A stretch of DNA of 64,000 nt from assembly GCA_964541905.1 (NCBI GenBank), contig CAZIRU010000001.1, positions 2,870-66,869 of the forward strand. Direction: 5' to 3'. Origin of the DNA: an uncultured Verrucomicrobiota bacterium (GTDB taxonomy: Bacteria; Verrucomicrobiota; Verrucomicrobiia; CAZIPW01). The notes below the pieces were generated by a model. It was not told the origin of the DNA and searched no databases. It saw only the letters and a list, made by a program, of their open reading frames with translations. Shown here piece by piece: positions 10,149 through 26,528 of the stretch; within the stretch, counting starts at the first letter, position 1, and each line of letters opens with the position of its first letter. A program made the position numbers and the translations under genes.

Positions 10149-11648
10149 TTATGCGTGGCGACTAAGCTGGGCTTGGAGCAACTCAACCGTCCGTTTGATA
10201 TTCATGTCCTGCTCCATCATGTTCTCAACCGCCTTGCAGGCGTGAATCACCGTTCCGTGATCGCGGCCGCCAAAGTGCTCGCCGATTTCCTGAAGCGCAT
10301 GGGAAGTCAAAAGGCGGCAAAGATACATAGCGACTTGACGCGGGAAGGCAATGCCAGAAGGCCGACGTTTGCTTTGCATGTCGGAAGGGCGCAACTTGTA
10401 GTACTCGATCACTTTTTGCTGAATCTTTTCGATCGTCAGCTGGGCTTGCGCCTCCTCTTGAAGGATGTCCTTGAGCAGGTGCTCCACCTTGGGAAGATCG
10501 AGCACGCCGTTCATGAGATTGGCGTAGCTGGAAACGCGCGTGAGAGCCCCTTCCATCCGGCGCACGTTGCGGGTGATCGCGCGCGCCAAGAAGGAAATAA
10601 TCTCGTCGGAAATTGAGATGCCCAAAAGTCCCGCCTTGCGGCGCATGATCGCCACGCGGGTCTCGAAGTCGGGGACTTGGATGTCGGTAACCATCCCCCA
10701 CTGGAAGCGCGAAACCAAACGCGCCTCAAGCTTGGAAATCTCGCCGGCAGGACGATCGGAGGTCAGACAAATCTGCTTGTTGCCCTCGAAGAGCTCGTTG
10801 AAAGTGTGGAAAAACTCCTCCTGCGTGCGGTCTTTGTCGGCCAAAAACTGGATGTCGTCGATCAGGAGAATGTCCGCTTGGCGGTAATGCTTGCGGAACT
10901 TGGGGAGAGAATGCGTTTCGATGGCGTGGATGAAATCGTTGGCGAACTTTTCGCAGGAAAGATACATCACATTGGCCGACGGGGTGTGGTCGAGAACCGA
11001 ATGCGCAATCGCCTGAAGGAGGTGGGTTTTGCCCAAGCCCGAGTCGCCGTAAAGGAAAAGAGGATTGTAGGCGCGCGCGGGGCTTTGGGCCACCGCAACC
11101 GCCGCCGCATGGGCAAGCTGGTTGGCTCCGCCGACGATGAAGTTCTCGAAAGTATAGCGCGGGTTGATCTGTATCCGAGGCTTTTGTGAAGCAGCCCCCA
11201 GCGGAGGCACCGGCAAACGCGAACGAGCGTCGGCGGCTCCCATGGAGCGCTCGAGGGGCAAAAAAGAGGCCGGAGCAGAAGGGCTCGCCGCAGGAGCAAC
11301 GGCAGTTTTTTCGTCGAGGGTGGTCAGCTTGACCGAAACGCCCTGCCCAAAAAGCTGCGCATATTGCTTTTTTATCAAATCGAGATAATTCTGCTCTATC
11401 CACAAAGCCGCAAAGTCGCTGGGCACCGAAAGAATAACGCCATTGGGGCTCTCCTCCAAACAATGCAAATTGTTGAACCAAGTCTCCATGATGTCGGAGG
11501 GAAAAATGCCTGAAAGGTATCTTAAAACCGTCGCCCAATGGGACGAACCCCCGGCCACGCCACCTGTATAGCCATCCTCCAAGACAGGCGCAAAGCGCTC
11601 CGACTTCTTCTTTTTATTCACATTCGATACAGCTGAGGACGTAAGCAT
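10149..11648 (-). CDS. dnaA: Chromosomal replication initiator protein DnaA
   Basis: AAA+ Walker A LFLYGDSGLGKTHLL, sensor motifs and C-terminal DNA-binding domain (VIHACKAVENMMEQD); start placed at ATG 11648 (ORF track extends to 11729). Confidence 0.95.
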   Translation of the reverse strand: MLTSSAVSNVNKKKKSERFAPVLEDGYTGGVAGGSSHWATVLRYLSGIFPSDIMETWFNNLHCLEESPNGVILSVPSDFAALWIEQNYLDLIKKQYAQLFGQGVSVKLTTLDEKTAVAPAASPSAPASFLPLERSMGAADARSRLPVPPLGAASQKPRIQINPRYTFENFIVGGANQLAHAAAVAVAQSPARAYNPLFLYGDSGLGKTHLLQAIAHSVLDHTPSANVMYLSCEKFANDFIHAIETHSLPKFRKHYRQADILLIDDIQFLADKDRTQEEFFHTFNELFEGNKQICLTSDRPAGEISKLEARLVSRFQWGMVTDIQVPDFETRVAIMRRKAGLLGISISDEIISFLARAITRNVRRMEGALTRVSSYANLMNGVLDLPKVEHLLKDILQEEAQAQLTIEKIQQKVIEYYKLRPSDMQSKRRPSGIAFPRQVAMYLCRLLTSHALQEIGEHFGGRDHGTVIHACKAVENMMEQDMNIKRTVELLQAQLSRHA

Positions 11649-12126
11649 GGCGTGTTCGCGTGAGATTCTCTTGCGAGGAAGAGATAAGGGCAAGCGAAAT
11701 TGTTTGAAAAATAAAGAAATTTTGCACAAGAAAACTACAAAGTGCTTGTGAACATGTACTTGCGAAAATAAAAAGCGTGAACAAGCCGTAAAAAGGCAGC
11801 TTCAGGCTAAGCATTGGAATAAAAAGCACTCAAAGCGGGCTTCTCCGCAGAAAAAGCGAAGCGAGCAAGCGGGATGTAAGTTATTCACAGGTTGTAAACA
11901 CCATCATTTCGTGGCCGTAAACAGCGTGGAGCCCCACGGGGAAACCCGTGGTTCCTTGCGTTACCCACGCAAGGTGCGACATCACGCCGTAGTCAGAAGT
12001 AAACTTGCCACATTCATCAACGCCTAAAGGCGTGGTCTTCTGCGGAGGCGGATAAATACGGCACAAACTCAATCCGCAGGGGGCGAAAGTATCGACAAGC
12101 CTTCGCGCGCTGTTTTAGAGTGCATC

Positions 12127-12696
12127 ATGATCGCGCGGCTAAAAGGAACTTTGTGGGAGAGCCAGCCCTTTCGGTTGGTGGTGGACGTGGGAGGCGTGGG
12201 GTATGCCGTGTGGGTTCCCATTCTCGAAAATATGCCCAGCTTGGGAATGCCGATAGAGCTTTTCACCCATGCCATTTACCGAGAGGACGCCGCCACGCTT
12301 TATGGCTTTTTGGAGCGCGCGCAGCGAGACCTTTTTGTAACGCTGGTCGAGAAAGTTTCGGGAATCGGGCCTAAGACCGCTCTGGGGCTTTTGGCGCACT
12401 TGGGTTGCGAACGGGTTTGGGCGGCAATCGAGGAAGGCAATGTGGCCGCGCTGACCGCCGCCCCCGGAATCGGCAAGAAAACCGCCGAAAGACTGGTTCT
12501 GGAAATGCGAGGGCTCTCCGCCATAAAAGAAAGCGCCCAAACATCCTCAGCCGTAACAGACGCCATTGCGGCTCTGGTCAGTCTCGGCTTTGGAACGACC
12601 GAAGCTCAAAAGAACATCGGCAAATTGGCGGAAAAAATGCCCAAGGCCAGCACAGATGAACTCTTGCGCGCCGCCTTGCGACCGACAAAAAATTAA
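12127..12696 (+). CDS. ruvA: Holliday junction DNA helicase subunit RuvA
   Basis: N-terminus MIARLKGTLWESQPFRLVVDVGGVGYAVWVP and HhH motifs (GIGPKTALGLL, PGIGKKTAERLVLEM). Confidence 0.85.
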   Translation: MIARLKGTLWESQPFRLVVDVGGVGYAVWVPILENMPSLGMPIELFTHAIYREDAATLYGFLERAQRDLFVTLVEKVSGIGPKTALGLLAHLGCERVWAAIEEGNVAALTAAPGIGKKTAERLVLEMRGLSAIKESAQTSSAVTDAIAALVSLGFGTTEAQKNIGKLAEKMPKASTDELLRAALRPTKN

Positions 12697-12714: not shown

Positions 12715-13455
12715 TTGCGGCATAGGATGTCCCTTATGACTGAAGAAGCAACTGCCGAAGCCGCTTTGCCGGCGGAGGACCTCGAAAAAGCATTAAAGCG
12801 TTGCCGTCCGGAGGTTTTGCAAGCCGCACAGGCGTATCGCAAAGAAGGTCGGTTGGAGCTTTTGCCAAAGATTGTCGTCGGGGTAATCGAGAGATATGTA
12901 GAGCCCGAACGCCGGTCGCTTTTTGAAAATGGCAACATTCAGCAGCTGCGGTTGCACGAAGATTTGGGCCTGGATTCGCTCGTGATGGTCGAGGTGGTGA
13001 TGACGCTCGAAGAAGTCTTGGGCAAACCGATTCCCGATTCGGAAATCCAAGGGCTCTATACGCTAGGAGACACGCTTGCCTATGCCCACGCGAAAGCAAG
13101 CGGAGCGCCGCTGCCCGTGCCTCCCGAACGGCTGGGAGCCGAAATGCTGCCGGTACTCCTTGGAGGAGAAGAACCCCTCGTTGGAAACGTAATCCTCTGG
13201 ATGAACGCAGCCGAAGGGACTTACATCGGGCAAGCTCCCGCTGAACCCAAAGCACTCATGGATGCGGCCGCGCAACTGGCAAAAGTTTGGGCGCAGCGCA
13301 AAGAACAGCTGCCCAGCCTAACACCGGAGCTCTCCGGCGGGAAAATCGAAATCCAAGCGGAGCTGCCCGTCGCACTGAGGCTTGTCAAAGGCTCGCATAC
13401 CGACATCTTTTATCGGCAAGCGGGAACCCCTCCCAAACTGCTGGGACATCTGTAG
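12715..13455 (+). CDS. Acyl carrier protein domain fused to an uncharacterised C-terminal domain
   Basis: Phosphopantetheine attachment motif EDLGLDSLVMVEVVMTLEE in the N-terminal ~100 aa, followed by ~140 aa without a recognisable motif; stop is 8 nt before the KAS ATG. Confidence 0.5.
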   Translation: MRHRMSLMTEEATAEAALPAEDLEKALKRCRPEVLQAAQAYRKEGRLELLPKIVVGVIERYVEPERRSLFENGNIQQLRLHEDLGLDSLVMVEVVMTLEEVLGKPIPDSEIQGLYTLGDTLAYAHAKASGAPLPVPPERLGAEMLPVLLGGEEPLVGNVILWMNAAEGTYIGQAPAEPKALMDAAAQLAKVWAQRKEQLPSLTPELSGGKIEIQAELPVALRLVKGSHTDIFYRQAGTPPKLLGHL

Positions 13456-13463
13456 GAGCGCCT

Positions 13464-14720
13464 ATGGAGAGAATTTTTATCACCGGAGTGGGTACTGCCT
13501 GCAGCATCGGTTCAAGTTATGCCGAAGTTGGCCGCGCCTTGGGCGAAGGACGCAGTGGTATTGTACCTACGCGCTTCCCGCAAGAGTATAAAGCCGAGCG
13601 CTTTGGTTTGTTTGCGCCCGTGGTGGACTTTAACACGCGTGAAGAGTCGCCCGAGGACTGGACCGGTCCGAACGGCTTTTCGCTGCCGATGGAAGTGATG
13701 CGGAGCATTCCCCCGAGCGGCCTTTATGCTTTTTGGGCAGTCCAAAATGCGCTTAAAGAGGCTGGCTTGGAACCTCAAGATGTTACGGACGGAAAAACCG
13801 GCCTTTATAGCGCCTCGGCGGGTTCTTCAAAGATGATGTATCAGCACCTCAAACGCATGTATGAGCGAGGGGTGATGGCCTCGTCCCCGCTGGGGGTTCT
13901 CTCAAGCGTCGTCGGAACGCTCAATTTTCATTTGGCAGCTTTTTACAAAATTACCGGCCCTACCTGCGGATTCGCCTCGGCGTGCGCGTCCTCCGGCCAT
14001 GCGCTGGGCTTTGCTTTTGACACGCTGCGCGCCGAAGGCGCCGAGCGGATGATTGTCTTGGGGGCTGAAGATGACACGCCGGAAACCATCCTGCCCTTTG
14101 CTCCCATGCGCGCGCTGGCGCAAGGGGCAAGTCTCGATGATTTTCACGGGCCTTTTGATGCCAAACGCAACGGCTTTGTAGGCACCGGCGGGGCCGTGGC
14201 GATGATTTTGGAACGCGAAAGCGTTGCAAAAAAACGAGGCGCCCGGCCCCTCGCAATTATGGAAGGCTGGGGACAGGCGACCGACGGTTATCATCCGGCA
14301 AAACCCCACCCCGAAGGAACGGGGCTCTTGGAAGCCATGAAAAATGCTTTACGGCAAGCCGGACGACAAGCCAGCGAGATTGATTACATCAACGCTCACG
14401 CAACCGGCACGCCCTTGGGAGACGCAGCTGAAGTCAAGGCGCTTGAAGCTCTTTATCCGGAAGGCTCTCCACACATCTCGAGCACAAAAGGACAGACCGG
14501 ACACGGCCTTTCCTTGGCCAGCGTCCTCGAGTCGGCCATTGTCATTTGGGCCTTGCGCAGTCAATGCGTCCCTGGCACAAGTGGCCTAAAAGAGCTTGAC
14601 GGAATTTGTAAAAAGCTCAGTATTCAGGTGGCAGCGCAACCGCTGGAAATGAAGGTCGGCATGACCAACTCGAGCGGCTTTGGCGGGGCCAATGTTTCGA
14701 TAATCTTTTCCAAGGCATGA
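13464..14720 (+). CDS. Beta-ketoacyl-ACP synthase (FabB/FabF/NodE-like KAS)
   Basis: Active-site Cys region GPTCGFASACASSGHA, His motifs NAHATGTPLGD and GHGLSLA; start at ATG 13464 with upstream GGAG. Confidence 0.8.
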   Translation: MERIFITGVGTACSIGSSYAEVGRALGEGRSGIVPTRFPQEYKAERFGLFAPVVDFNTREESPEDWTGPNGFSLPMEVMRSIPPSGLYAFWAVQNALKEAGLEPQDVTDGKTGLYSASAGSSKMMYQHLKRMYERGVMASSPLGVLSSVVGTLNFHLAAFYKITGPTCGFASACASSGHALGFAFDTLRAEGAERMIVLGAEDDTPETILPFAPMRALAQGASLDDFHGPFDAKRNGFVGTGGAVAMILERESVAKKRGARPLAIMEGWGQATDGYHPAKPHPEGTGLLEAMKNALRQAGRQASEIDYINAHATGTPLGDAAEVKALEALYPEGSPHISSTKGQTGHGLSLASVLESAIVIWALRSQCVPGTSGLKELDGICKKLSIQVAAQPLEMKVGMTNSSGFGGANVSIIFSKA

Positions 14721-15931
14721 GCGGGGCGTTTTACAGGCTTTTGATCCTGACCGCATCGACCGGCGGCGGCCATGATGCCCGTGCTGAGGCATTATGCGCG
14801 TGGGCGCGCGCCTTCTATGACGACAAAGTGGATATTCGCGTGCTCAGGCCGCTCGAGGGTGAAGCAACGCCACTGGGGAATCTTGGCGTGGGCCTTTACA
14901 ATCTTATCCAACGACGCGCGCCCTTTTTGCATCACGCGTATTTTTCGCTCATCGAAGTCTTGGGCGATTTGCAAGGACCTTGGTTCTTCGGGCGCAAGGA
15001 ATATGAACGAACCTTGAAGGAATTTAAGCCTCAGCTGGTCGTGAGTTTGCACGATTTTCTTAACAAGGGCTACTTTGAACTGGCGCGAGAGATTTTGGGA
15101 GAAAAAGTGCGCTGCGTGACTTATTGCGGGGAATACGGCACCGGCAAGGGATTTAGCAAGCATTGGGTTTCGACAGCCGCCCACAAATGGATCGGCCGAA
15201 CTGAAGGCGCCCTGCGCGCTGCGTATCGCAGAGGCATCCGTCCCGAGGCAATGGAACGTTTTACTTTTTTCCTGCCTCCAGATGAAGTAGCCGCCCTCAA
15301 AACGCCTCCCTCACGCAAGGCTCTCCGGCTGGATAACTCCATGCTTACGCTTCTTTTTGCCAGTGGACGCAATGGCGCGATCGACAACGTGCGCTATCTG
15401 AAAGCCCTTCTACCCTATCGCGACAAAGTGCAGGCTATCGTTGTCTGCGGCACCAATGAACGGCGGCGGCGCGAGGCCGAAGAATGGCATCACGAGACGC
15501 AATTCCCGATGATTGTGGAAGGCTACTCCTCACGGCTGAGAACACTTACGCAGCTCGCCGACGTGGTCATTTTCAAGGGCGGGGCAAATACGGCTACGCG
15601 CGCGTTTTTTGAGGCGTGTCCAATGTATTTCGACGCGACGGGGGGCGTAATGCCGCAGGAGAGGCTGACGGTGGATTTTTTTGTAAATAACGGCGCAGGC
15701 GCACTTGTGCGCTCGCCCAAAGAGCTTGCCGCAAGAGTGGAAGCGGAGCTGGGCGGGGCGGGACGCCTTTCCGGGATGCGGCTGCGGCTGCAAGCCTTGC
15801 GCGAGGCTTATCGGTATCCGGAGGCGGCAGAGTTTTTTGACGCGCTTTTGAGCTGGGGCTTTTTCCGCGAGGAGACGCGGCGGGCGATTCTGCAAGGAAT
15901 GTCTGAAGAAGAAGTGGGCGCACGCGTATAG
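14717..15931 (+). CDS. Glycosyltransferase, MGDG-synthase-like (GT28-type)
   Basis: N-terminal LILTASTGGGHDARAEAL resembles the MGDG synthase/UgtP N-domain; overlaps KAS stop by 4 nt (operonic). Confidence 0.6.
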   Translation: MSGAFYRLLILTASTGGGHDARAEALCAWARAFYDDKVDIRVLRPLEGEATPLGNLGVGLYNLIQRRAPFLHHAYFSLIEVLGDLQGPWFFGRKEYERTLKEFKPQLVVSLHDFLNKGYFELAREILGEKVRCVTYCGEYGTGKGFSKHWVSTAAHKWIGRTEGALRAAYRRGIRPEAMERFTFFLPPDEVAALKTPPSRKALRLDNSMLTLLFASGRNGAIDNVRYLKALLPYRDKVQAIVVCGTNERRRREAEEWHHETQFPMIVEGYSSRLRTLTQLADVVIFKGGANTATRAFFEACPMYFDATGGVMPQERLTVDFFVNNGAGALVRSPKELAARVEAELGGAGRLSGMRLRLQALREAYRYPEAAEFFDALLSWGFFREETRRAILQGMSEEEVGARV

Positions 15932-15995
15932 GAGGGGGAACAAAAGTGCGCGAGTTTTTTTTGGTAAAATGGATGAGGTTGTGGTAGCGTAAGTC

Positions 15996-17189
15996 ATGCG
16001 GGTGGCGCTTATTTATACTTCGTTCCCCAAAGACTCCGAGACGTTTTTGCAGAGGGAAGCGCGCGAATTTTTGAAGCTGCAAGGGGAGCGCGACGTGGAA
16101 TTTCAGTTCTATTCCCTTTGGGGAGGTAAAAAAAACTTTGAAGGTCACGCCGTGCAGAGGCTGGGGACCGGCGGGATTTTGAAGGCACTCGCGCGCGGGA
16201 TTCTCCTGACCTTCACGAGGCCCTCGATGTGGAAACTTTTCTGGCCAAGGGAAAAATGCTCGTGGGTAGGCTTTTGGGAAAATGCGCTGGGGCTCGCCGG
16301 AGGCGTTGTCTGGGCGCGCGCGCTCGCGCAAGCCGATTGGGTTCATGCCCAGTGGGGAGGAGCCCCCGCCATGTGCGCCTTTGCGGCATCAAAACTCACG
16401 CGCATGAGGTATTCGATGGGGCTACACGCCTACGACTTGTGGGAAAAGGGTGGAAATGCGTTTTTGCGGCAAAAAGTCGAGAAGGCCGAGGCGATTTTCT
16501 CATCGAATGACGCCGCCTTTGAAGAAGTTCGGCGGCGCTTCTCCAGCAAAGAAGCGTGCAGAATTCGTCGGGGGCTTGCGGCGGAACTTTTGGAGAAAGA
16601 GATTCCCCGGCGGCAACGGCAAATGCCACTCGTGCTCGGCATTGGAAGATTGGTCGAGAAAAAAGGGTTTGCGGATTTTATAAAAATCGCGGCGGCGCTT
16701 AAAGATCGCGGGATCGCCTTCGAGGCGGAAATTATCGGAGACGGGCCGCTGCGGGAAAAACTGCAAAGACAGAATGAATGCGCCGGCGCTCCCGTTACGC
16801 TGGCCGGTTGGCGCAACGAGGCCGAAGTCCGAGCGCGGCTCTCAGAGGCGGAACTGATGCTTTTCAATGGGCAAGTAGCCAAAAATGGCGATCGCGACGG
16901 CTTTCCCAATACAATCGGCGAGGCCTTTGCTGCCGGCACGGTCGTCATTGCCAACGATGTCTCCGGCGTCGCCGAAGGAGTCTTTGACAACCAAACCGGA
17001 AAGCTTATGCAAACGCGCGAGATTGGCGCGTGGGCGGAAACCATCCAAGCGCTTTTGGCAGACGCGCCGCTTAAAGAACGACTGCGGCAAAACGCGCAAA
17101 AGTGGGCCCGCGCCAATTTCAATGCGCGCCTGAATGCCGAAGAGTCCCTAAAGCACTTTGACCGCCTCGCGAAAAGCCCGCTCGACTAA
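15996..17189 (+). CDS. Glycosyltransferase family 4 (group 1)
   Basis: C-terminal GT4 signature GDRDGFPNTIGEAFAAGTVVIANDVSGVAEGV. Confidence 0.65.
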   Translation: MRVALIYTSFPKDSETFLQREAREFLKLQGERDVEFQFYSLWGGKKNFEGHAVQRLGTGGILKALARGILLTFTRPSMWKLFWPREKCSWVGFWENALGLAGGVVWARALAQADWVHAQWGGAPAMCAFAASKLTRMRYSMGLHAYDLWEKGGNAFLRQKVEKAEAIFSSNDAAFEEVRRRFSSKEACRIRRGLAAELLEKEIPRRQRQMPLVLGIGRLVEKKGFADFIKIAAALKDRGIAFEAEIIGDGPLREKLQRQNECAGAPVTLAGWRNEAEVRARLSEAELMLFNGQVAKNGDRDGFPNTIGEAFAAGTVVIANDVSGVAEGVFDNQTGKLMQTREIGAWAETIQALLADAPLKERLRQNAQKWARANFNARLNAEESLKHFDRLAKSPLD

Positions 17190-18317
17190 ATCCATATCCT
17201 CGTCGGTATGCGCCGCCGAAATGGCCGTGCGAAGCAAATCTTTGCCGGGAGGAACCGCCGGAGAAAGACTCATCACCGTAAAAACACCGCACTCAAGCAG
17301 CTTCTTCCAGAACGAAAAAACCCTTTGGCGGGAACCCAGCACGATGGGCGTCGCAGGCGTCTGCGAGCCCCAGTAGTCGAGCTTGAGCTCATCCAAAAGC
17401 GCATGGAAGCGCCGCGTATTGGCCCAAAGCCGCGCATGATGCTGCGGCTCGGCTTGAAGCACCTCCAAGGCCGCCAAGGCACACGCCGCCGAAGCCGGAG
17501 GGATGGCCGCGCTAAAAATGAGCGGGCGGCCATGCGTGCGCAAATATTCGATGAGTTCGCTGCTGCCAGCCACAAACCCGCCCACGCTTGCCAAAGACTT
17601 GGAAAGTGAACCGCAAAGCAGGTCGATCCTATCCCCAAGACCAAGCGCTTGCGCGGTGCCGCGGCCTTCGGGCCCCATCACTCCCAAACCATGTGCATCG
17701 TCCAAAACCACAAGCGTGCGCTCCTCGTCCACCGAAGCAAGCAGCTCGGGCAATGCCGCAACATGCCCCTCCATGGAATAAACGCCCTCCACCACGAGCA
17801 TTTTGTCGCGCGGGGCTTCCTCGGCGATGAGGATCGAGCGCAAGTCCTCGGCGCTGTTGTGCGCAAACCGGACAACCTCGGCGCCAGAAAGCGCCACGCC
17901 GCTCATTAGCGACGAATGCAAATTGCGGTCAGCCAAAATAAGATCTCCCTTTTGCGCAAAAGTGCTCACCGCCGACATGCAGGCCAAATAGCCCGCCGAA
18001 AAAACATGGCAGCGCTCCTTCCGCAAAAAACACGCAAGGGCTTCTTCCAGCTGGCGGTGGTAGGCGCGCGAACCATTGGCCATGCGCGAACCCGTGGGGC
18101 TTGACCCCCACTCGCGCAAGGCTTTCTCGCCCGCCTCGATCACTTTCGGATGCCAGCACAATCCCAAATAATCGTTGCTGGAAAGCATGACGTATTCGCG
18201 ACCCTCCAGCCAGACGCGCGAAGCCCTTTGCCGCTCGAAGGTCTTGTAATAAGGAGCGTAGAAAAGCCGCAGCTTTGTCGCATCGTCGGAATGAAATTTT
18301 TTGAGGATGGGACGCAT
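17148..18317 (-). CDS. Alpha-oxoamine synthase family PLP-dependent acyltransferase (serine palmitoyltransferase/BioF/Kbl-like)
   Basis: PLP-lysine motif LCGSLSKSLASVGGFVAG and AOS fold landmarks (VMLSSNDYLGL, LVVLDDAHGLGVMGPEGRG). Confidence 0.75.
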   Translation of the reverse strand: MRPILKKFHSDDATKLRLFYAPYYKTFERQRASRVWLEGREYVMLSSNDYLGLCWHPKVIEAGEKALREWGSSPTGSRMANGSRAYHRQLEEALACFLRKERCHVFSAGYLACMSAVSTFAQKGDLILADRNLHSSLMSGVALSGAEVVRFAHNSAEDLRSILIAEEAPRDKMLVVEGVYSMEGHVAALPELLASVDEERTLVVLDDAHGLGVMGPEGRGTAQALGLGDRIDLLCGSLSKSLASVGGFVAGSSELIEYLRTHGRPLIFSAAIPPASAACALAALEVLQAEPQHHARLWANTRRFHALLDELKLDYWGSQTPATPIVLGSRQRVFSFWKKLLECGVFTVMSLSPAVPPGKDLLRTAISAAHTDEDMDLVERAFREAVKVL

Positions 18318-18364
18318 AAAGACAAAAGCAGGGCAAAAAATGATTTAAAGCCCAACCCGAAGGC

Positions 18365-19387
18365 TTAAGCAAATAGTTTTTGCGCCACGACCGTCCAGCT
18401 TTTGGCCGCCGCAAACTTTTGTGCCGCAAGCGAAAACTCCCTCCAAGCGCGCTCATCCCGCGTCAGCTGCAAAAGCGCATCCAAAAACGCGCGGCGATCT
18501 CCCGGAGGAATCAGAAGTCCCGTGCGGCAATGCTGAAGCGCTTCGCCCACGCCTCCGCAGTCGTAGGCTATCGCCACGCAGCCCATCGCCGCCGCGTCCA
18601 AAAGCGCCAGTCCATAGCCTTCCATCCGGTTTTTGAGCGTCACGGCCGGCAGAACAAAAAATGACGCCCGCGCGTAAAGCAAGCTCAACTCGCCTTCGGC
18701 CACATCTCCCAAAAGACGCACCGGAAGGCCCGCCGAGAGTCTCTGCAGCCTTTGCGCATAGGCCCGATCGCGCGACGGTCCGGCAATATCGTAGGAAAAC
18801 TCCGGCAGCAAACCGCCAGCCATTGCTTCGAGAATCTCATGCTGGCCCTTGCGCGGATGGAGTCGGCCAACGGTTAAAAGGCGTTTTTCTTCGCGCAAGC
18901 CATCAATGAAGGTCAAGCCCGACGAAGGAGCGGCTCCCGTGACCACCAGCTTTTCGGCGACGTGCGGCACGACTGATAGCGCCAACTCGGCCACCGCCCG
19001 CGAAAGTGTGTAAATTTGCTCGGCATGCTCCAACAACTCGCGAAAACGCCGCATGTGGCCAAACGAGAGAATTTCAGAGCCATGCAAAATCAACCGGATG
19101 CGCCGCGAAAGCGTCCACTTCCACGCCCACAACGCTGCACGGATCGCCGCCGCCTCGGCTAAATAGACAACCTCGGCCTCTATCTGGCGCAAAGCGCGGG
19201 AGGCCCGATAGAGATTCGCAAGCGATTGGCTGTGATCGCAGGGCAAGACCACATCCGCCGTCGAAGTCGGCGCCACCAAGAGAGGGCGAATCCCCAGCGC
19301 GCCCGCAGCCTCAAGGCTATAGCGCAAAAAAGATGCCACGCCCCCGACGCGAGGGAAGGCTTCCAATGTTACAAGAGCTACTTGCAC
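18365..19387 (-). CDS. Glycosyltransferase family 4
   Basis: GT4-like C-terminal half (EGYGLALLDAAAMGCVAIAYDCGGVGEAL); co-directional with the AOS gene. Confidence 0.65.
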   Translation of the reverse strand: MQVALVTLEAFPRVGGVASFLRYSLEAAGALGIRPLLVAPTSTADVVLPCDHSQSLANLYRASRALRQIEAEVVYLAEAAAIRAALWAWKWTLSRRIRLILHGSEILSFGHMRRFRELLEHAEQIYTLSRAVAELALSVVPHVAEKLVVTGAAPSSGLTFIDGLREEKRLLTVGRLHPRKGQHEILEAMAGGLLPEFSYDIAGPSRDRAYAQRLQRLSAGLPVRLLGDVAEGELSLLYARASFFVLPAVTLKNRMEGYGLALLDAAAMGCVAIAYDCGGVGEALQHCRTGLLIPPGDRRAFLDALLQLTRDERAWREFSLAAQKFAAAKSWTVVAQKLFA

Positions 19388-19417
19388 CCGACGAGTTTAT
19401 CGAATTATCCTTTGGCT

Positions 19418-20185
19418 ATGCGACCGAAATTTAAAAACGCGCTCGTCACCGGAGGAAGCTCCGGTTTGGGCCGCGCGCTGGCAGAGAATCTGCAAAAAGA
19501 AGGTGTGTCGGTATCGGTCGTTGCAAGGAGGGCCGACGGGTTGCCCAAGGGAACTCGTCATTGGCAGGCCGACTTGGCAGACGCCGCCCAGCTGGCAGCA
19601 CTGGAAGGGCTCATTCGAACGGAGGCTTTTGATTTGATTATCAATGCAGCCGGAAGCGCCGAAATAGTCGAGGCGGAAAGAATCTCGCCGGAAGAAGCCC
19701 AGCGAGCATGGCAGCTGATGGTAGAATCTCCGCGAAGGATCGCCGCAGCAGCATTGCCGGAGCTCCTCAAAAGCAACGGTGCGCTTGTCAACATCAGCTC
19801 GCTCGCCGCTGAATTTCCGATTCCTTATCTCTCGCTTTACAATGCTGCCAAGGCGGCCTTGAGTGCGCAAACGCTCTCTCTTGGCGACGAGCACCCCCAT
19901 TTGCAGGTCTTGGACGTCCGCCCAGGAGATATTTGCACGAGCTTTGGCGCAGCATGGCAAGCGCAAGGCCCCCTAAAAAAACAAATCCTTCACCTGCGCA
20001 AAATGATGGATGCAGCGCCGAGGCCCGAACGAGTAGCGCGGCAAATCTTGCGGGCTCTCTATGCGGGCCGCAAGGGGACTCTTAGAGTGGGTGGCTTTTG
20101 GCAGGCGGCTTTTCTGCCCTTCTGCGCGAGGCTTGTCCCTGAGTCGTGCGTCAATTTTATCAGAAAAAAATATTTAAACGCCTGA
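19418..20185 (+). CDS. Short-chain dehydrogenase/reductase (SDR)
   Basis: Rossmann motif ALVTGGSSGLGRALA and catalytic YxxxK (YNAAKAAL); start at ATG 19418 (ORF track extends upstream into the neighbouring gene). Confidence 0.7.
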   Translation: MRPKFKNALVTGGSSGLGRALAENLQKEGVSVSVVARRADGLPKGTRHWQADLADAAQLAALEGLIRTEAFDLIINAAGSAEIVEAERISPEEAQRAWQLMVESPRRIAAAALPELLKSNGALVNISSLAAEFPIPYLSLYNAAKAALSAQTLSLGDEHPHLQVLDVRPGDICTSFGAAWQAQGPLKKQILHLRKMMDAAPRPERVARQILRALYAGRKGTLRVGGFWQAAFLPFCARLVPESCVNFIRKKYLNA

Positions 20186-20188
20186 GTT

Positions 20189-21283
20189 ATGCGCGTGGTA
20201 ATCTATCAGGATTTTTTGAGGCTGGGCGGAACCGAGCGACATAGCATCGCTCTCGCACAGGCCGCCATGCAAGCCGGGCACGAAACAACTCTTTTGACCA
20301 ACCGCCCCGGGGGGCGCGCAGCTAGGGAAGCTAAAAAGGCAGGACTGACGCCACTTGCTCTACAAGCCTTTGATTCATTCTGCGATGAATGGGCCCCCAA
20401 TCGCGAAAAAGTGCTCGCCCGGCTTCGTCCGGATGTCCTCGTATGCATGGGGAACGTAGCCAATGGCGAACTTGGCAAGCTAAAGGCCCAAACTCAAAAA
20501 ATGTCCACCCGCCTGATAGGAACCGCGCGTACGGGCAAGCGGCTCGGGCAAAAATTACGCAAAGCCTACGCGGCCGCCGACGCAATTATCTGCAACAGCC
20601 ACGCCTTGGAAAACCTGCTCCTCTCCAGCGGGATCCGCGCGCCCATGATTGTCATCGGGAATGCCTTGTTAGCAAACCCGCGCAGCGATCCGGCCGCACG
20701 AATGCTCTTGCGTCGCAAAATGTCCGCCGGCGAAAACACAACGGTCGTCTTGTGTTTGCAACGGATGATCCCCGGCAAACAGCAACAAAAGCTGATGGAA
20801 AACTTTTTCTGCGCCGCACACGATTGCGATGCCCAACTCTGGATCGTTGGCCACGGGCCCTCCTATTGGCCTTTGAAACTTTACGCGCGCATCCTCGGCG
20901 AGGATAAAATCAAGGTGCTCAGGCAGGAGCTTCCAGTTGAAAACTATTACAATGCCGCCGACATGGCTGCCACCACCTCTCACGAGGATTCGCTGCCCAA
21001 TTTTCTCATCGAAGCGCATGCTTTTGGGCTGTGCGGGGTTTGCGAGGACTACGCCGGCTGCGGGGAAGTCGTGGTCGGAGGGCTGACCGGCTACGTTTGC
21101 CCCGTGGATGATACGGCCGAATACGCCTCGGCGATGCGCGAGCTTATTTTAAGCCCCCAAACGCGTCGCTTCATGGGCGAGACCGCCCGCACTATCAGCT
21201 TCCGCTTCAATCGGGAACAGCTCCTGAAAAGGTTTTTGCGGGTTATCGAAACAGTTGGCGCAAAAAACAATTCCAATGCCTAA
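20189..21283 (+). CDS. Glycosyltransferase family 4-like
   Basis: GT4-type fold indicators (EDSLPNFLIEAHAFGLCGVCEDYAGCGEVV); 364 aa. Confidence 0.55.
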   Translation: MRVVIYQDFLRLGGTERHSIALAQAAMQAGHETTLLTNRPGGRAAREAKKAGLTPLALQAFDSFCDEWAPNREKVLARLRPDVLVCMGNVANGELGKLKAQTQKMSTRLIGTARTGKRLGQKLRKAYAAADAIICNSHALENLLLSSGIRAPMIVIGNALLANPRSDPAARMLLRRKMSAGENTTVVLCLQRMIPGKQQQKLMENFFCAAHDCDAQLWIVGHGPSYWPLKLYARILGEDKIKVLRQELPVENYYNAADMAATTSHEDSLPNFLIEAHAFGLCGVCEDYAGCGEVVVGGLTGYVCPVDDTAEYASAMRELILSPQTRRFMGETARTISFRFNREQLLKRFLRVIETVGAKNNSNA

Positions 21284-22208
21284 AAAACCTCTATGGATCG
21301 TTGTGCGGCCGGATCGTCTGGGGGATTGCATTGTGTCCTCGGCGCTTCTTGCAGACGTCCGCTGCGGGCAGGAAAAGGCGAATTTTGTCTGGTGCGTTCC
21401 CGAGGCGTTTCTTCCTCTTTGGGAAAAAGCGCCCTATCCCATACTTGCGCTCGAGGCTCTGCCGGATTTTTGCCGGAAGGAAAAAGCAAACGGCACTCCC
21501 ATAAAAGCCGTTTTTTTGAACCCCAAAAGGGAAATCGAGGCCCAGCTCTGCGGCTGTGAAGTTTTTTCTTGGGGCAAAACCCTCAAGGACCATCGCAAAC
21601 GCTGCGAAAAGCCCGAGGCGGCATATGCCGCCGAACTTCTACGAGCAGCAGGGCTCGAGGCGCAAACCGGTCTGCCGCAGCTTTTCCCCGCAACCATCGC
21701 CTCAAGCTCATTTGCCAAGCCTTACGTCCTCTTTCATGTGGGTGCGCACGGTCGCAAGGCCAGTCTGCCGCCAACGCTTATCGAGGAACTTACGCTTTTG
21801 CTTGGCGAACGAGGCATCAAGGCTATCTGGCTGGGCGTGGATCAAACACAGCCCGATTTCCGTAACCTCGCCGAACGGGCTCAACGCACGCATACGCGGA
21901 CACTCGGAAGCCGCTTGCCCATCAAAGAGCTCCTTGCGTGGATTGCCGGAGCGAAGGCCATACTCGGGCGCGATAGCGGCATCGCGCATCTGGCAGGCGC
22001 ACTGGGCGTGCCAACCGTAGCGCTTGTAGGCCCTGTGGCAAAAACGCTCGCGCTGCGCCGTTGGGCAGTTCGAGGCGCCCATACCAAAAATCTAGAGCTC
22101 CAAATCAACCCTCGTTGGTACGAAACTGATAAGGCTTATCAGGCGCGCTACTTCGGTTGCGCCACAAGCGATCCGTTTTTGCACGCGCTCGACGAACTTT
22201 GGCATTGA
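21276..22208 (+). CDS. Glycosyltransferase family 9 (LPS heptosyltransferase-like)
   Basis: GT9 signature GRDSGIAHLAGALGVPTVALVGP; N-terminus PLWIVVRPDRLGDCIVS typical of heptosyltransferases; start ambiguous (21255 or 21276). Confidence 0.7.
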   Translation: MPKKPLWIVVRPDRLGDCIVSSALLADVRCGQEKANFVWCVPEAFLPLWEKAPYPILALEALPDFCRKEKANGTPIKAVFLNPKREIEAQLCGCEVFSWGKTLKDHRKRCEKPEAAYAAELLRAAGLEAQTGLPQLFPATIASSSFAKPYVLFHVGAHGRKASLPPTLIEELTLLLGERGIKAIWLGVDQTQPDFRNLAERAQRTHTRTLGSRLPIKELLAWIAGAKAILGRDSGIAHLAGALGVPTVALVGPVAKTLALRRWAVRGAHTKNLELQINPRWYETDKAYQARYFGCATSDPFLHALDELWH

Positions 22209-22241: not shown

Positions 22242-23510
22242 ATGCGTTTGAGTTTATTTCTACTTGTCGTGGCAACGGCGCCTTCTGTTTTTTCACAGAG
22301 TCGTTCGCTTACGACCGAAATTTTCCCGGAAATCGAAAAACTTTATCAGTTGGCCGATGAAGACAGCACCGCCGCGCAACTGCGTTCTCTCAATGAAAGG
22401 GAGGCTTCTTATCTTTCGAAAATCGATCATGCGCCGCTGTGGCCTAAACTTGAGGCCAGCAGCAACTTCAGCTATCGCGTGGAGGACCGCGCCGATTTCG
22501 ATTATCTGGTAGAGCACACTGACTATAATTCGACAGCGACACTTTCGTATCCGCTTTATCACTGGGGAGCCCTGAGGGCGCAAGCCAAACAAGGAAGGGA
22601 GACCCTTCGGCAGGCTTCGATTAAAAATGAAATGGACCTTCTGGATCAGCACGCCAAAATCCGCGCACTTTACTGGCAACTGCTTATTGCCCAAAAACGT
22701 CTCTCCATCACCCGCGAAGAGATGCAAGCTTTGCTCAACCAAACGCCAGGAGAAGAAATCTCGCCCATTGCCGAAGAAAGTCGCACGCTCGACAGGACTG
22801 AACGCCAACTGACGCTCCAAGAACTCGAAGGCAAAGTGGATGCGCTCGCAGGCGAGTTGCAAAAACTTTTAGGTTCGCGGCCGGAATTAAGTTTTTCTTT
22901 TGCGGGCTTCCCCGAGGCGCTCTCCATCCCCGAAACATGGGATGCGGAATCGCTGCGCAGCACACTGGAAACAAAAAAATACGAAAGCCGCGCCGCTGAA
23001 AAAAAGGCCGAAATCACGCGGAGCAAGGCCTTGGGGCTGCCACGGATTGATTTAGTCGGCGCTTTCTATCAGGACTTGGTCGATGGCGTAAATGTTTCGA
23101 GTTCTGTGCAAAGGAATAACTATTTGATTGGCATACGCGGCCGCTGGGAACTCTTCAACGGCTGGAAGACATCGTCAGAAGTGGCTCTTTCGCGGATACG
23201 CCACCGCAGAGAGAGTGAATATGCCAAAGAAACCATCCGGCAGGCGCGAGAGAAGCTTGAGCTCGACCTGCGCGAACTAAAAATTCTCGAAGCGCGCTAC
23301 CAGATTGCGCGGGCGCGCTTGAAGCTGAACGAAGCACAGCTTTCTTCGCAAACAGAGCTCTCCAAACAGGGGCAAGTTTCCAACGAGGCAATCCAAGCCA
23401 TGCAGCGCAATCGCGCGGCGGTGGAGATAGCAGCATTGGAGTCTCTCACGCGCTTCCTCGATCTTTATGAAAAAATTCAAAACATATTTGCGCTTCCTGA
23501 AAACGCCTAA
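22242..23510 (+). CDS. TolC-like outer membrane efflux protein
   Basis: Signal peptide MRLSLFLLVVATAPSVFSQS, coiled-coil-rich repeats typical of outer membrane factor proteins; first gene of an efflux operon. Confidence 0.65.
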   Translation: MRLSLFLLVVATAPSVFSQSRSLTTEIFPEIEKLYQLADEDSTAAQLRSLNEREASYLSKIDHAPLWPKLEASSNFSYRVEDRADFDYLVEHTDYNSTATLSYPLYHWGALRAQAKQGRETLRQASIKNEMDLLDQHAKIRALYWQLLIAQKRLSITREEMQALLNQTPGEEISPIAEESRTLDRTERQLTLQELEGKVDALAGELQKLLGSRPELSFSFAGFPEALSIPETWDAESLRSTLETKKYESRAAEKKAEITRSKALGLPRIDLVGAFYQDLVDGVNVSSSVQRNNYLIGIRGRWELFNGWKTSSEVALSRIRHRRESEYAKETIRQAREKLELDLRELKILEARYQIARARLKLNEAQLSSQTELSKQGQVSNEAIQAMQRNRAAVEIAALESLTRFLDLYEKIQNIFALPENA

Positions 23511-24609
23511 GGGGCTTCTGGCCATAGCGGTCGCGCTTTTGGCGCTGTGGCTTGCTGCAGGGTTTTTTTCGCCGATAGTGGATGTGGCGCCTGTAAAAAA
23601 ACAGAGCGCCCTTTGGGCTGTCACGGGAACGCTCAAAGTCATCGCCGCGCGCGAGGTCGTGGTCAAAACTCAGGTAGACGGGCGCTTAACGCAATTGAGC
23701 GCTCTTGAAGCCTCAGGGAAACGGTCACTCAAAGCGGGCGAGGTATTCGCCGCGCTGGATTCAACCGCGTTGGATCGCGAGATTGCCCTCTATCAAGCGC
23801 GCAAAGATACCACCGAAAAACAGATTGAAATCGGCAGCGACAACGAACTGGAAATTATCAATCTCCGAGGCGACCTAAATACCGCGGAAACGCTTTTTGC
23901 CAATGGCCAGCTCTCCAAAAACGAACTCGACCGGCGGCGCCGTGCGCTCGAAAAGCTGGAGCGCGCTTGGCAAAAAGAGCATCTAGACCTTGAACGCGAG
24001 TTGGCCGACGCGCAGTACGAGCTCCAAAGCCGCTTGGATAAGAAAGCCAAAATGGAGTTGCGCAGCCCCATTGACGGTGAAATGTGCGCACTTTACGTCG
24101 TCGAAGGCCAGGTGTTGCCACCAGAGTGTCCGGTTGCGCTTATTCGATCCAAAGAACTTTCGCTGGAGGTAAGCCTTTCCGAAGAAGATTTTCCGGGAAT
24201 CGAAGTCGGCCAGCGCGCCACTTTGAGCTTTACCGGCATTGGCGGCACGTTCCAAGGGCACGTCACCGCTCTCGCCGCTTACGGCAATCCTGAGACACGC
24301 CGCCGCAGCGCTTTCGTAAGCCTCGAAACCCCAAGCGAGTTGATCGTCCCTGGCTCGACGGGATACGCCACTATCATCAAAGCCGAACGCGCCCAGGCTC
24401 TCACCATCCCACGCCGCGGACTTTTCGGCAATACCGTTTTTGTGCATTCGTGGGGACACCTGCATCGGCGCATCGTGCAGCTCGGCTATCAAAGTTTTTC
24501 GACCATCGAAATCGTTGGCGGGCTTTCCGGCTGGGATAGCGTTGCGCTCGCCGGCGACGTGGAGTTGCACGATGGCATGCGCGTCAAAACCCGCCGCGTC
24601 AAACCCTAA
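23467..24609 (+). CDS. HlyD/MacA-family periplasmic adaptor (membrane fusion protein)
   Basis: N-terminal TM anchor, coiled-coil segment and beta-barrel-like C-terminus; position between TolC-like and ABC permease genes. Confidence 0.7.
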   Translation: MKKFKTYLRFLKTPKGLLAIAVALLALWLAAGFFSPIVDVAPVKKQSALWAVTGTLKVIAAREVVVKTQVDGRLTQLSALEASGKRSLKAGEVFAALDSTALDREIALYQARKDTTEKQIEIGSDNELEIINLRGDLNTAETLFANGQLSKNELDRRRRALEKLERAWQKEHLDLERELADAQYELQSRLDKKAKMELRSPIDGEMCALYVVEGQVLPPECPVALIRSKELSLEVSLSEEDFPGIEVGQRATLSFTGIGGTFQGHVTALAAYGNPETRRRSAFVSLETPSELIVPGSTGYATIIKAERAQALTIPRRGLFGNTVFVHSWGHLHRRIVQLGYQSFSTIEIVGGLSGWDSVALAGDVELHDGMRVKTRRVKP

Positions 24610-24615
24610 CCGCAC

Positions 24616-25859
24616 ATGGCCCCCACCCTTCTTATCGCCTGGCGTTTTCTGCGCGCGCAAAGCCGTGCGGCCGCCATGGGAGTCATGGGTATCGCGCTGG
24701 GGGTCGCCTTCTTTGTCCTTACTCAGGCTCAAACAAAAGGCTTCGAGGAATTTTTCATCAAGACTATTTTGGGAACCAACGGCGCGGTGCGCATCACCGA
24801 ACGCTACCAAAACCGCCACGACTATATCAGTCTTCAAAGCTCTTCCGGTCAGGAGCTCGGCGACTATCAGCTCAGCAACCGCACCTACCAGCGCGGGGTG
24901 GACTATCCGGAGGCCATCCGCGCCGAACTCGAAAAAATACGAGGCATCTCGGGCATTTCAGAAATCGTCGAAGGCGCCGGCGAGTTGGAATTTTCAGGGC
25001 AAAACTTTCGCGTAGCGCTCAACGGCATCCGTCTTTATGATCATCTACGCGTAAGCGCATTGAGCTCACAAATCATCCAGGGTTCTTTGCAAGACTTCGA
25101 CTCGGAGTCGCTTCCCATTGTCATCGGCGCACGCCTCGCCAAGCGGCTCCAAGTTGAAATTGGCCAAAAAGTGATGCTACGCTGTGGCTCGCAGACCGCC
25201 CAAGGACGACTTATTGCGGTCTTTGAAACAGGCGCAGGCGAGATTGATCTGGAGCGCATCTATCTGCCTCTGGGCCCAGCCCGAACGCTCTTGCGGCGGC
25301 CTTTTGGAGGAAGCGTCCTGCAGCTGGCCCTGAGCGATCCTGAAAATGCCGAGACTCTCGCGGCAAATATCCGCACGACTCTTTTCTATCACGCCACCGG
25401 CTGGAAAGAACGCGAAAAGGTTTGGCTCGACGTCTTTTTAGCGCTGCGGGTTTCCTCTGGAATCACCGTTTGCAGCATTCTAGTCATCGCCGCCATGGGA
25501 ATTTTCAATACCCTCAGCATGATGGTGCTCGAAAAGACCCGACAAATCTCAATCCTCATGGCGATGGGCTATTCCGGCGGCGACATCCGCACAATCTTTC
25601 TGCTGCAGGGCGCATTTTTGGGGGCACTGGGGTGTACAGCGGGAGTCGCGCTGGGGGTATTGGCGACGGCCATTGTGGAGCGTCTCCCCATCCGCATTCG
25701 GGGCATTTTTTCGACGGATCACTTTGTCGTGAGTTGGGATCTCTCGCATTATCTGCTGGCTATCGCGCTTGCAGTTGCGGCGGTGGTTTTGGCAACCCTT
25801 TGGCCGGCCTTGCGGGCTGCGAAGCTCCATCCGGCTAACGTCCTCAGAGGAGGTGCCGA

Positions 25860-25863
<4 letters not shown>
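24616..25863 (+). CDS. ABC transporter permease, FtsX/MacB/LolC-E family
   Basis: N-terminal TM helix, large periplasmic domain, C-terminal FtsX-type helices (SILMAMGYSGGDIRTIFLLQGAFLG). Confidence 0.7.

Positions 25864-26528
<665 letters not shown>

Follow-up and report, generated by a model that had tools for sequence, protein, structure and literature searches.

The stretch of DNA analysed here, hereafter the window, is 64,000 nucleotides of contig CAZIRU010000001.1 from an uncultured Verrucomicrobiota bacterium (assembly GCA_964541905.1). At positions 12715–22208 it carries nine consecutive genes, encoding an acyl carrier protein (ACP) fusion, a beta-ketoacyl-ACP synthase (KAS), a GT28-like glycosyltransferase (GT), three GT4-family enzymes (GT4a, GT4b and GT4c), an alpha-oxoamine synthase (AOS), a short-chain dehydrogenase/reductase (SDR) and a GT9-family enzyme, and four exporter genes follow. 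Open reading frame (ORF) listing and profile scans bore out the nine genes and the domain content that a preliminary description, made from the sequence alone, had given them. Its gene details were corrected in two respects: the AOS and GT4b genes are on the minus strand, and the SDR gene starts at 19418, where an ATG restores the TGGSSGLG cofactor motif (the public 239-amino-acid call on Logan contigs begins 3' of this motif; interval 19226–20185). The locus very probably serves the synthesis and export of a glycolipid.

Organisation and conservation of the locus

ORF coordinates divide the genes into three transcription blocks: (ruvA)-ACP-KAS-GT28-GT4a, GT4b-AOS on the opposite strand, and SDR-GT4c-GT9-exporter (Table 1). 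The 3' ends of GT4a and the AOS overlap by 42 bp, and GT4b and the SDR diverge from a 30-bp gap. GT4b lies upstream of the AOS and is apparently co-transcribed with it. Overlaps of 4 nt join the KAS stop to the GT28 start and, likewise, the exporter permease to its ATPase. The third block is a single co-directional run from the SDR through GT4c and GT9 to the last exporter gene, with genes that overlap or are separated by no more than 33 nt. Upstream of the locus are ruvA, 39 nt from the ACP gene, and dnaA close by (10149–12696).

To measure conservation, 80 metagenomic loci were retrieved with a profile of the GT28-like family, and each neighbour was counted only in loci with enough flank. 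The KAS gene adjoins the GT28-like gene in 47 of 47 loci, the ACP fusion is beside it in 37 of 38, and an SDR orthologue, placed between KAS and GT28, is present in 47 of 60. Because of these counts, the grouping of the locus genes is far beyond chance. The divergent GT4 represented by GT4b in the window occurs in 26 of 33 core loci, and GT4a follows the GT28-like gene in 25 of 55. The core is an ACP-dehydratase, a KAS and a monogalactosyldiacylglycerol (MGDG)-synthase-like GT28 (invariant across the 80 loci), usually with the SDR. The adjacency of ruvA and the ACP gene is kept in three related lineages (L173, L174 and L091; the loci compared here are numbered with the prefix L), and exact-match look-ups found the identical arrangement on two Logan contigs. 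The gene cluster is real and is conserved among Opitutae-type Verrucomicrobia.

The composition of the module varies: L171, from a 5.9-Mb genome, has ACP-FabZ, KAS and GT28 without the SDR, and L172 has ACP-FabZ, SDR and GT28 without the KAS, with the module adjoining bamA-skp-prs-degP. A PfkB-family kinase gene is always near the locus, in the window at 26758–27648. A scan for promoters and terminators over 11.7–27.7 kb gave counts at the level of shuffled sequence and was uninformative; a promoter-like site stands at 12092, 5' of ruvA.

Table 1. Genes of the locus and of the adjoining exporter, with positions in the window.
Gene	Position	Strand	Domains and features
ACP fusion	12736–13455	+	PP-binding; Ser81 within invariant DSL motif
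KAS (FabF/FabB-type elongating beta-ketoacyl-ACP synthase)	13464–14720	+	triad Cys174-His312-His347
GT28-like (MGDG-synthase/UgtP-like), 404 aa	14717–15931	+	presumed first-sugar, lipid-acceptor transferase
GT4a	15996–17189	+	Glycos_transf_1
AOS, pyridoxal phosphate (PLP)-dependent	17148–18317	-	Aminotran_1_2, 165 bits
GT4b	18365–19387	-	Glyco_trans_1_4 + Glycos_transf_1
SDR, classical, 255 aa	19418–20185	+	adh_short, 95 bits; TGGSSGLG + YNAAK
GT4c	20189–21283	+	Glyco_transf_4 + Glycos_transf_1
GT9, divergent, heptosyltransferase family	21303–22208	+	Glyco_transf_9, 50 bits (cut-off 22)
OEP, TolC-like outer-membrane factor	22242–23510	+	two OEP repeats; TolC family model 49 bits, below cut-off
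MFP, periplasmic adaptor	23467–24609	+	HlyD_D23 + HlyD_3; RND_mfp 103 bits (cut-off 94.9)
MacB/LolC-type (type VII) ABC permease, periplasmic core domain	24616–25863	+	FtsX + MacB_PCD; lolCE 183 bits (cut-off 362)
Exporter ABC ATPase	25860–26528	+	ABC_tran; LolD 232, MacB 189, DevA 159 bits, each below cut-off

The ACP fusion, KAS and SDR

The ACP protein combines an N-terminal extension carrying a conserved LKRCRPEV motif, a carrier domain covered by PP-binding and ACP models at residues ~77–127, with its phosphopantetheine site at Ser81, and a C-terminal degenerate FabZ-like hot-dog domain. An AlphaFold2 model (pLDDT 84.6) predicts an ACP with a hot-dog-like fold behind it; in Foldseek the N-terminal part matches ACPs and the C-terminal part FabZ (TMt 0.51–0.59, with weak E-values). 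Opitutus terrae and about 35 metagenomic loci have an intact fused FabZ with the canonical His and Glu motifs (GHFKxNPVxPAS...EALGQL). In the window lineage, which comprises eight protein clusters (P0234–P0241) and loci L091, L092, L173 and L174 besides the window, the FabZ-like domain is ~60 amino acids shorter, has a deletion of the GHF histidine motif and carries another residue in place of the Glu; the fusion itself is retained. A YbgC-type thioesterase gene, which elsewhere adjoins the module, is likewise missing from this lineage.

The KAS contains both ketoacyl-synt domains (N and C), scores 260 bits on the fabF model (cut-off 494) and has FabF as its best PDB match (184 bits). The SDR matches only generic SDR models and generic PDB entries, with 67 bits on KdsR against a cut-off of 400, and is presumed to be a ketoreductase acting on a beta-ketoacyl-ACP or on a 3-keto long-chain base. 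An aryl-polyene-like pathway, suggested by weak ApeI-like matches of the FabZ domain, was set aside: there is a single KAS with neither an adenylating nor a chain-length-factor partner, and the dehydratase is predicted to be dead in the window lineage.

Glycosyltransferases and exporter

The GT28-like protein had been described as MGDG-synthase-like, and this holds: among solved proteins it is related only to diacylglycerol glycosyltransferases, the sole PDB sequence matches being Arabidopsis MGD1 (61 bits, E 1e-15) and a processive diacylglycerol beta-glucosyltransferase. It scores 62 bits on the NCBIfam UgtP model, short of the cut-off of 500. Many of its homologues carry PF06925/PF04101 (MGDG_synth/GT28_C), whereas the window protein falls short of the level at which Pfam reports a match. 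In the N-terminal motif STGGGHDARA, T15 and H19 are invariant among 24 homologues, and conservation is 90% or higher at most of the remaining positions. The MGDG_synth and Glyco_tran_28_C domains and the GGGH loop point to membership of the MGDG-synthase/UgtP type. Like plant MGD1 and bacterial UgtP, the protein has an N-terminal GGGH nucleotide-sugar loop and a GT-B C-terminal domain; unlike them, and at very low identity to them, it belongs to a narrow family (113 clusters, the few named matches being Opitutaceae and Puniceicoccales) that is restricted to Opitutae and always lies beside ACP/KAS genes.

GT4a is the orthologue of the 403-amino-acid O. terrae GT4 that follows GT28 (37% identity), and GT4b is the within-loci reciprocal best match of a 384-amino-acid O. 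terrae GT4; in other Opitutae the GT4b orthologue is divergently paired with the ACP-dehydratase gene. GT4c is 52% identical to its counterpart in L003, where the gene order is the same. Against the PDB, the three GT4s gave generic matches only (PglA, PimB', BshA), none of them to WaaG, and a functional assignment was not obtained. The GT9 protein stays below the cut-offs of all the WaaC, WaaF and WaaQ heptosyltransferase equivalogs, with 52 bits against 185 for heptosyltransferase I and 31 against 170 and 26 against 135 for the others.

The FtsX-type exporter with adaptor and TolC-like protein, noted earlier from the sequence, was recovered in the domain scans as OEP, MFP, FtsX/MacB_PCD and ABC ATPase genes, contiguous at 22242–26528 and assignable to the MacB-type tripartite systems. 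The components score highest on the LolC/E and LolD models. The same four genes adjoin AOS and GT genes in L003 and L085. The exporter genes are probably co-transcribed with SDR-GT4c-GT9, and the co-directional, tight packing of the block agrees with the earlier suggestion that the exporter could carry the product of the locus. MacAB-TolC and DevBCA-HgdD, the latter an exporter of heterocyst glycolipid, are four-part pumps. The exporter in the window has the same set of parts: its FtsX/MacB permease includes a periplasmic domain, its ABC ATPase is a protein of its own, and a membrane-fusion protein and TolC-like channel complete it. It differs in that its components are below the MacB, DevA/DevB and LolCDE cut-offs and match LolC/E and LolD best.

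Family placement of the AOS

The catalytic set of the AOS (His134, Asp206, His209 and Lys240) aligns with H138, D210, H213 and K244 of the S. multivorum serine palmitoyltransferase (SPT); this set is common to the whole AOS superfamily and does not discriminate within it. In pairwise comparison with solved proteins, the closest is the S. multivorum SPT (282 bits), with the SPTs of S. wittichii and S. paucimobilis at 252 and 245 bits (37–39% identity for the three). The Thermus AOS gives 246 bits, Kbl 213, cysteate acyltransferases 196 and 184, and Escherichia coli BioF 188. The earlier assignment to the SPT/BioF/cysteate acyltransferase family holds; the nearest pairwise relatives are SPTs, and the protein reaches the cut-off of no SPT, BioF or Kbl model. 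Many metagenome-assembled genomes (MAGs) of Opitutaceae and Puniceicoccales, as well as O. terrae, Puniceicoccus vermicola and Congregicoccus parvus, encode homologues at 59–76% identity, which identifies the source of the window as an Opitutae-type verrucomicrobium.

A neighbour-joining tree was built from 103 sequences: the Opitutae homologues, 76 sequences from other phyla, the three solved SPTs, the Thermus AOS, and E. coli BioF and Kbl. The 76 came from an AOS peptide-pattern scan of GTDB genomes, which gave just four Opitutae loci, and were used as references for the tree and not for synteny. Bootstrap values refer to a 28-sequence subset with few non-SPT references, by neighbour joining only. 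The Opitutae AOS clade is monophyletic (100%), the 76 sequences fall in a clade with the Bacteroidetes SPT (86%), and BioF, Kbl and the Thermus AOS split from the rest (89%).

At the substrate-site positions defined on the S. multivorum SPT structures (PMC10196870), the window AOS has N52, G80, S81, R82, N85, H138, S185, D210, H213, S243, K244 and A274 (S. multivorum numbering), of which N52, G80, S81, R82, N85, S243 and A274 are the SPT-type residues; at positions 82, 85, 243 and 274 at least one of BioF, Kbl and the Thermus AOS differs from it. It also has Leu in place of the initial Arg of a C-terminal motif, AR[IL]R, where those three proteins share the Arg. Of six columns that the three share and that are rare in SPTs, the Opitutae consensus matches one and the window AOS two. 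These patterns suggest that the AOS belongs to an orphan, Opitutae-specific clade leaning towards SPT, in none of the curated families (SPT, BioF, Kbl). A 5-aminolevulinate synthase was considered and rejected: L086 encodes a C5-pathway glutamyl-tRNA reductase 4 kb from the AOS, and the score on the corresponding model is 221 (cut-off 339).

Genomic context of the AOS and its link to the module

Neighbours of the AOS gene were compared in 14 Opitutae loci. Most of the loci have glycosyltransferases (GT4, GT9, GT8, GT2) near the AOS, others have LptF/G or BamA-Skp-LpxD, and bioA/B/D or tdh were found near the AOS in none of the 14. A GT9 gene lies directly 3' of the AOS in L085 (10001–12227, genes overlapping) and L086 (10001–12342), and an overlapping GT8 gene does so in L005 (9953–11874); lptF/G precede the AOS in L086, and bamA-skp-lpxD come after it in P. 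vermicola (L084). Because the AOS adjoins GT, LptF/G or Bam genes and never biotin or tdh genes, its context points to an outer-membrane glycoconjugate and not to cofactor or amino-acid metabolism. The arrangement of AOS followed by GT9 or GT8 belongs to Puniceicoccales-type genomes (L085, L086 and L005).

L003 and L174 keep GT4b and the SDR linked to the AOS, and L173 does so partially (L001 is the window's own sequence). This connects the AOS to the module, because GT4b and SDR orthologues are core module genes in O. terrae-type loci. In O. terrae PB90-1 (CP001032, ~5.194–5.215 Mb), ACP-FabZ, KAS, SDR, GT28, GT4a, GT4b and an AOS 60% identical to that of the window lie within one 10-kb block.

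In O. terrae-type loci a 430-amino-acid multi-pass membrane protein with no family match is encoded directly 5' of the AOS (L083:8572–9870; also L087, L142, L151 and L154), and further 5' in O. terrae is a 731-amino-acid protein, likewise with no family match (L083:3267–5462). Both are absent from the window. In another phylum, Chloroflexi/Anaerolineae MAGs (L013:7584–11170 and L022:7703–12247) carry co-directional genes for an MGDG synthase (GT28), a UbiA-family prenyltransferase, an Spt-like AOS with 52% identity to the S. multivorum SPT, and an LPG_synthase_TM-like protein; here a GT28 lipid glycosyltransferase is paired, independently, with an Spt-like gene.

A proposed pathway

The best single reading of the product, which we hold tentatively, is a glycosylated sphingoid-type aminolipid. 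Gene content, conservation, linkage and residue patterns were observed directly, and from them we infer all chemical steps and the product. The preliminary description had cautioned that the exact product cannot be assigned from sequence, and this caution was correct.

In the first step, the dedicated ACP and the FabF-like KAS, with housekeeping fatty-acid synthesis enzymes and perhaps the SDR, would assemble a special, carrier-bound acyl chain; the fused FabZ would take part in most Opitutae and is predicted to be catalytically dead in the window lineage. The SPT-leaning AOS would then off-load the chain in a decarboxylative condensation whose second substrate is a small amino acid, likeliest serine, to give a 3-keto long-chain base. 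The AOS is proposed for this role because it is the sole enzyme of the window locus able to consume an acyl thioester. No thioesterase or acyltransferase was found in any window-lineage locus, so that no candidate for off-loading other than the AOS is left there, and the scanned main ORFs of the 64-kb window contain no GNAT/acyltransferase, thioesterase or cysteate-synthase-like PLP enzyme. The SDR would reduce a keto group, on either the beta-ketoacyl-ACP or the 3-keto long-chain base. To judge from family membership, the GT28-like enzyme may add the first hexose to the lipid alcohol, and the three GT4s and the GT9 may extend the glycan. Finally, by analogy with DevBCA-HgdD and MacAB-TolC, the ABC transporter, together with the adaptor and the TolC-like protein, could move the glycolipid to or across the outer membrane.

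Several observations weigh against a sphingoid product. For the AOS itself, the NCBIfam SPT models give 346 bits on NF047600 (SPT-CFB, cut-off 640), 344 on NF047599 (SPT-beta, cut-off 500) and 274 on NF047603 (cut-off 670), next to 339 on TIGR00858 bioF (cut-off 426) and 299 on the Kbl model (cut-off 460). In calibration, genuine SPTs reached 715–752 bits on their own model, SPTs and Kbl scored 319–390 on bioF, and E. coli Kbl scored 348 on NF047600. Since Kbl scores alike on the SPT model and SPTs alike on bioF, ~340 bits is superfamily background, and these scores were dropped as a classifier. The profile searches that the preliminary description had proposed for separating Spt, BioF and Kbl left the AOS below every cut-off, and it was the pairwise comparison that placed it nearest to SPTs. 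In the neighbour-joining bootstrap, with its few non-SPT references, the Opitutae clade joins the sphingomonad SPTs in 28% of replicates, the outgroup in 39% and neither in 29%, so that none of the three placements is well supported. The AOS shares the GSR-x-x-N, SKS and FSAA motifs with the solved SPTs (S. multivorum 3A2B/8GUH, S. wittichii 2X8U, S. paucimobilis 2JG2). Unlike them, it is below the SPT cut-offs, T241 is replaced by Ser, S81 is Ala across most of the Opitutae clade, and by an unbiased count the clade matches 4 of 10 SPT-specific columns.

Partner genes and lipid data count on the same side. Domain scans of the main ORFs of the 64-kb window and the O. terrae locus, made without reference sequences, found no bCerS or CerR, and scans of the 64-kb window found no acyl-ACP synthetase or AMP-binding gene. 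No lipid data for Opitutae were found in the literature searched. The sphingolipid-type synthesis suggested in the preliminary description is partly supported: the AOS leans towards SPT, and bCerS, CerR and acyl-ACP synthetase, which together with Spt define the ceramide pathway known from bacteria, are missing from the locus.

The linkage of the AOS to the module tells against the proposal as well. The AOS adjoins the ACP/KAS/GT28 module in only 9 of 40 loci (7 of 21 with at least 8 kb of flank), so the combination of AOS, SDR and dedicated ACP, named in the preliminary description as the core logic of bacterial sphingolipid or sulfonolipid synthesis, is not conserved as a triad. GT9/GT8/GT4, LptF/G or BamA-Skp-LpxD genes are more frequent neighbours of the AOS. 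In two near relatives of the window the halves are apart: L091 lacks an AOS next to its ruvA-ACP-KAS-GT28-GT4a run, which sugar-nucleotide genes follow, and L003 carries the AOS half alone, with genes for LeuRS, Ddl and FabH after the AOS. A YbgC-type thioesterase, which could off-load the chain without an AOS, accompanies the module in 24 of 31 loci.

Alternative readings

These linkage data favour a somewhat unlikely but serious alternative, in which two unrelated envelope pathways stand side by side and their interleaving in the window is a lineage-specific rearrangement. One, comprising the ACP-dehydratase, KAS, SDR, GT28 and GT4 genes, would make a glycolipid on diacylglycerol or on a thioesterase-released (hydroxy) fatty acid; the other, with the AOS, GT9 and GT4c, would make another product. 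Diacylglycerol is also the acceptor of the only solved relatives of the GT28-like protein, and in L084–L087 and L005 the AOS lies away from ACP/KAS/GT28, beside GT9, GT8, LptF/G or BamA-Skp-LpxD. Two separate pathways fit less well with the sub-clade of the window, where the AOS is apparently co-transcribed with GT4b and divergent to the SDR, both core module genes elsewhere. They also fit poorly with the O. terrae lineage, which keeps the seven genes in one place although its AOS is just 60% identical to that of the window, and with the window lineage, which lacks a thioesterase or acyltransferase to use the acyl-ACP.

A role in lipopolysaccharide (LPS) assembly is quite improbable. The GT9 and GT4s would be core transferases, the ACP, KAS, dehydratase and SDR would supply an unusual lipid A chain, very long or hydroxylated like that made by the rhizobial acpXL cluster, and the AOS would add an aminolipid modification. 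This would account for the GT9-family gene within the locus, for the LptF/G, BamA-Skp-LpxD and BamA-Skp genes that adjoin the AOS or module genes in L086, L084 and L172, and for KdsB and DUF374 in the window; the set of ACP, FabZ, FabF and reductase also resembles acpXL-fabZXL-fabF-adh. Against it, an LpxL/LpxXL-type acyltransferase was found in none of the loci examined, the GT9 is far below all heptosyltransferase cut-offs (best 52 against 185), the GT4s have no WaaG match among solved structures, and the GT28-like protein is akin to diacylglycerol glycosyltransferases and not to lipid A enzymes. To our knowledge, no alpha-oxoamine synthase has a role in LPS.

That the AOS is a housekeeping BioF or Kbl which happens to sit among GT genes is very improbable. 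Its bioF score is near its SPT-model scores, and the JGI annotation of homologues is 8-amino-7-oxononanoate synthase; that score is, however, below the bioF cut-off and within the range of genuine SPTs and Kbl on the same model. E. coli BioF is the weakest pairwise relative among the SPT, Kbl and BioF references (34% identity), and the columns shared by BioF, Kbl and the Thermus AOS are mostly unmatched. The grouping with BioF that the preliminary description had considered was not seen: these three proteins are set apart in the tree, and biotin or tdh genes were found beside the AOS in none of the 14 Opitutae loci.

Equally hard to credit is a cysteate-fatty-acyl transferase making a capnine-type sulfonolipid, an option of the preliminary description in whose favour nothing specific was found: the enzyme superfamily is the same, and the locus shares an SDR with the capnine pathway (PMC9304779), but the solved cysteate acyltransferases are farther from the AOS than SPTs and Kbl, the window yielded no cysteate-synthase-like PLP enzyme, sulfonolipids are described for Bacteroidetes (PMC9304779), and the capnine pathway has no place for five glycosyltransferases.

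Comparison with known systems

Rhizobial acpXL-fabZXL-fabF2XL-fabF1XL-adhA2XL-lpxXL and NodF/NodE use a dedicated ACP and KAS to divert fatty-acid synthesis to a special chain for an envelope or secreted glycolipid. As in the acpXL cluster, ACP, FabZ domain, KAS and SDR occur together in relatives of the locus. Unlike the rhizobial systems, ACP and dehydratase are fused, there is one KAS, and no LpxXL- or NodA-type acyltransferase is present; glycosyltransferases and the AOS stand in its place.

A specialised ACP that feeds Spt is established in Proteobacteria (PMC11324152), and the sphingolipid locus of Caulobacter crescentus and Rhodobacteria comprises Spt, AcpR, the acyl-ACP synthetase AasR, CerR and bCerS (PMC11324152, PMC11087976). 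The locus in the window is similar in that an AOS is near a dedicated ACP and a reductase and that the product proposed here is destined for the outer membrane; Caulobacter and Sphingomonas also have glycosylated sphingolipid derivatives. It differs in that a KAS (with FabZ in relatives), and not an acyl-ACP synthetase, partners the ACP, bCerS and a CerR-type reductase are lacking, the AOS is outside the curated SPT families, and five glycosyltransferases and a MacB-type exporter are included. The locus would work like the Caulobacter and Sphingomonas systems. Lacking bCerS, CerR and an acyl-ACP synthetase, and with an AOS that falls short of the SPT thresholds, it is not a member of the Spt + bCerS + CerR pathway (PMC11087976).

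A bolder form of the sphingoid reading, which we consider unlikely, is that Opitutae make a lipooligosaccharide-like glycosphingolipid by an unprecedented route. ACP and KAS, with FabZ in most lineages, would supply an SPT-like AOS without acyl-ACP synthetase, bCerS or CerR, the GT28 would act on a sphingoid or ceramide acceptor, and the MacB-type pump would be a sphingolipid exporter. In one version of this route, KAS, ketoreductase and dehydratase, without an enoyl reductase, would hand a trans-2-enoyl-ACP to the AOS, and a 4-unsaturated base would then form with no desaturase involved.

The rest of the window

The remainder of the window is housekeeping: scpA, a recF-like gene, nrdDG, methyl-accepting chemotaxis proteins, mutS, methylmalonyl-CoA mutase, an oligopeptide ABC importer, ligA and a proS-like gene. 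A GDP-mannose-dehydratase-like epimerase-family protein is encoded far from the locus, at 48461–49456, and a GT1-type glycosyltransferase (EryCIII-like_C with a GT28 N-terminal domain) at 50686–51963 on the minus strand. A DUF374 protein (57989–58603) and a KdsB-like CMP-Kdo synthetase (62062–62823), both on the plus strand, indicate that the organism makes Kdo/LPS. Between scpA and the recF/SMC_N-like gene, a 693-amino-acid ORF on the minus strand (900–2981) has no Pfam match at E <= 1e-6.

Significance

Bacterial sphingolipids are now thought to be widespread, a view resting largely on counts of 'Spt-like' genes (PMC11334938). Such genes were reported in 22 Verrucomicrobiota MAGs (Ding et al. 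2024, PMC11334938), and the supplement of that study gives no taxonomy for the verrucomicrobial matches. In the literature searched we found no description of a verrucomicrobial sphingolipid producer or pathway, nothing specific on sphingolipids, ceramides, glycolipids or SPT in Opitutae or Verrucomicrobia, and no description of the ACP-FabZ/KAS/GT28 module.

The locus offers a concrete, testable candidate in a cultured organism, O. terrae PB90-1, with accessory enzymes that differ from those of the Caulobacter and Bacteroides pathways. The route of bacterial sphingolipids to the outer membrane has been stated to be unknown (PMC11087976), and the built-in MacB-type exporter could address how such lipids get there. 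If the AOS makes no long-chain base, the ACP-FabZ/KAS/GT28 module would still represent an undescribed, phylum-restricted glycolipid pathway.

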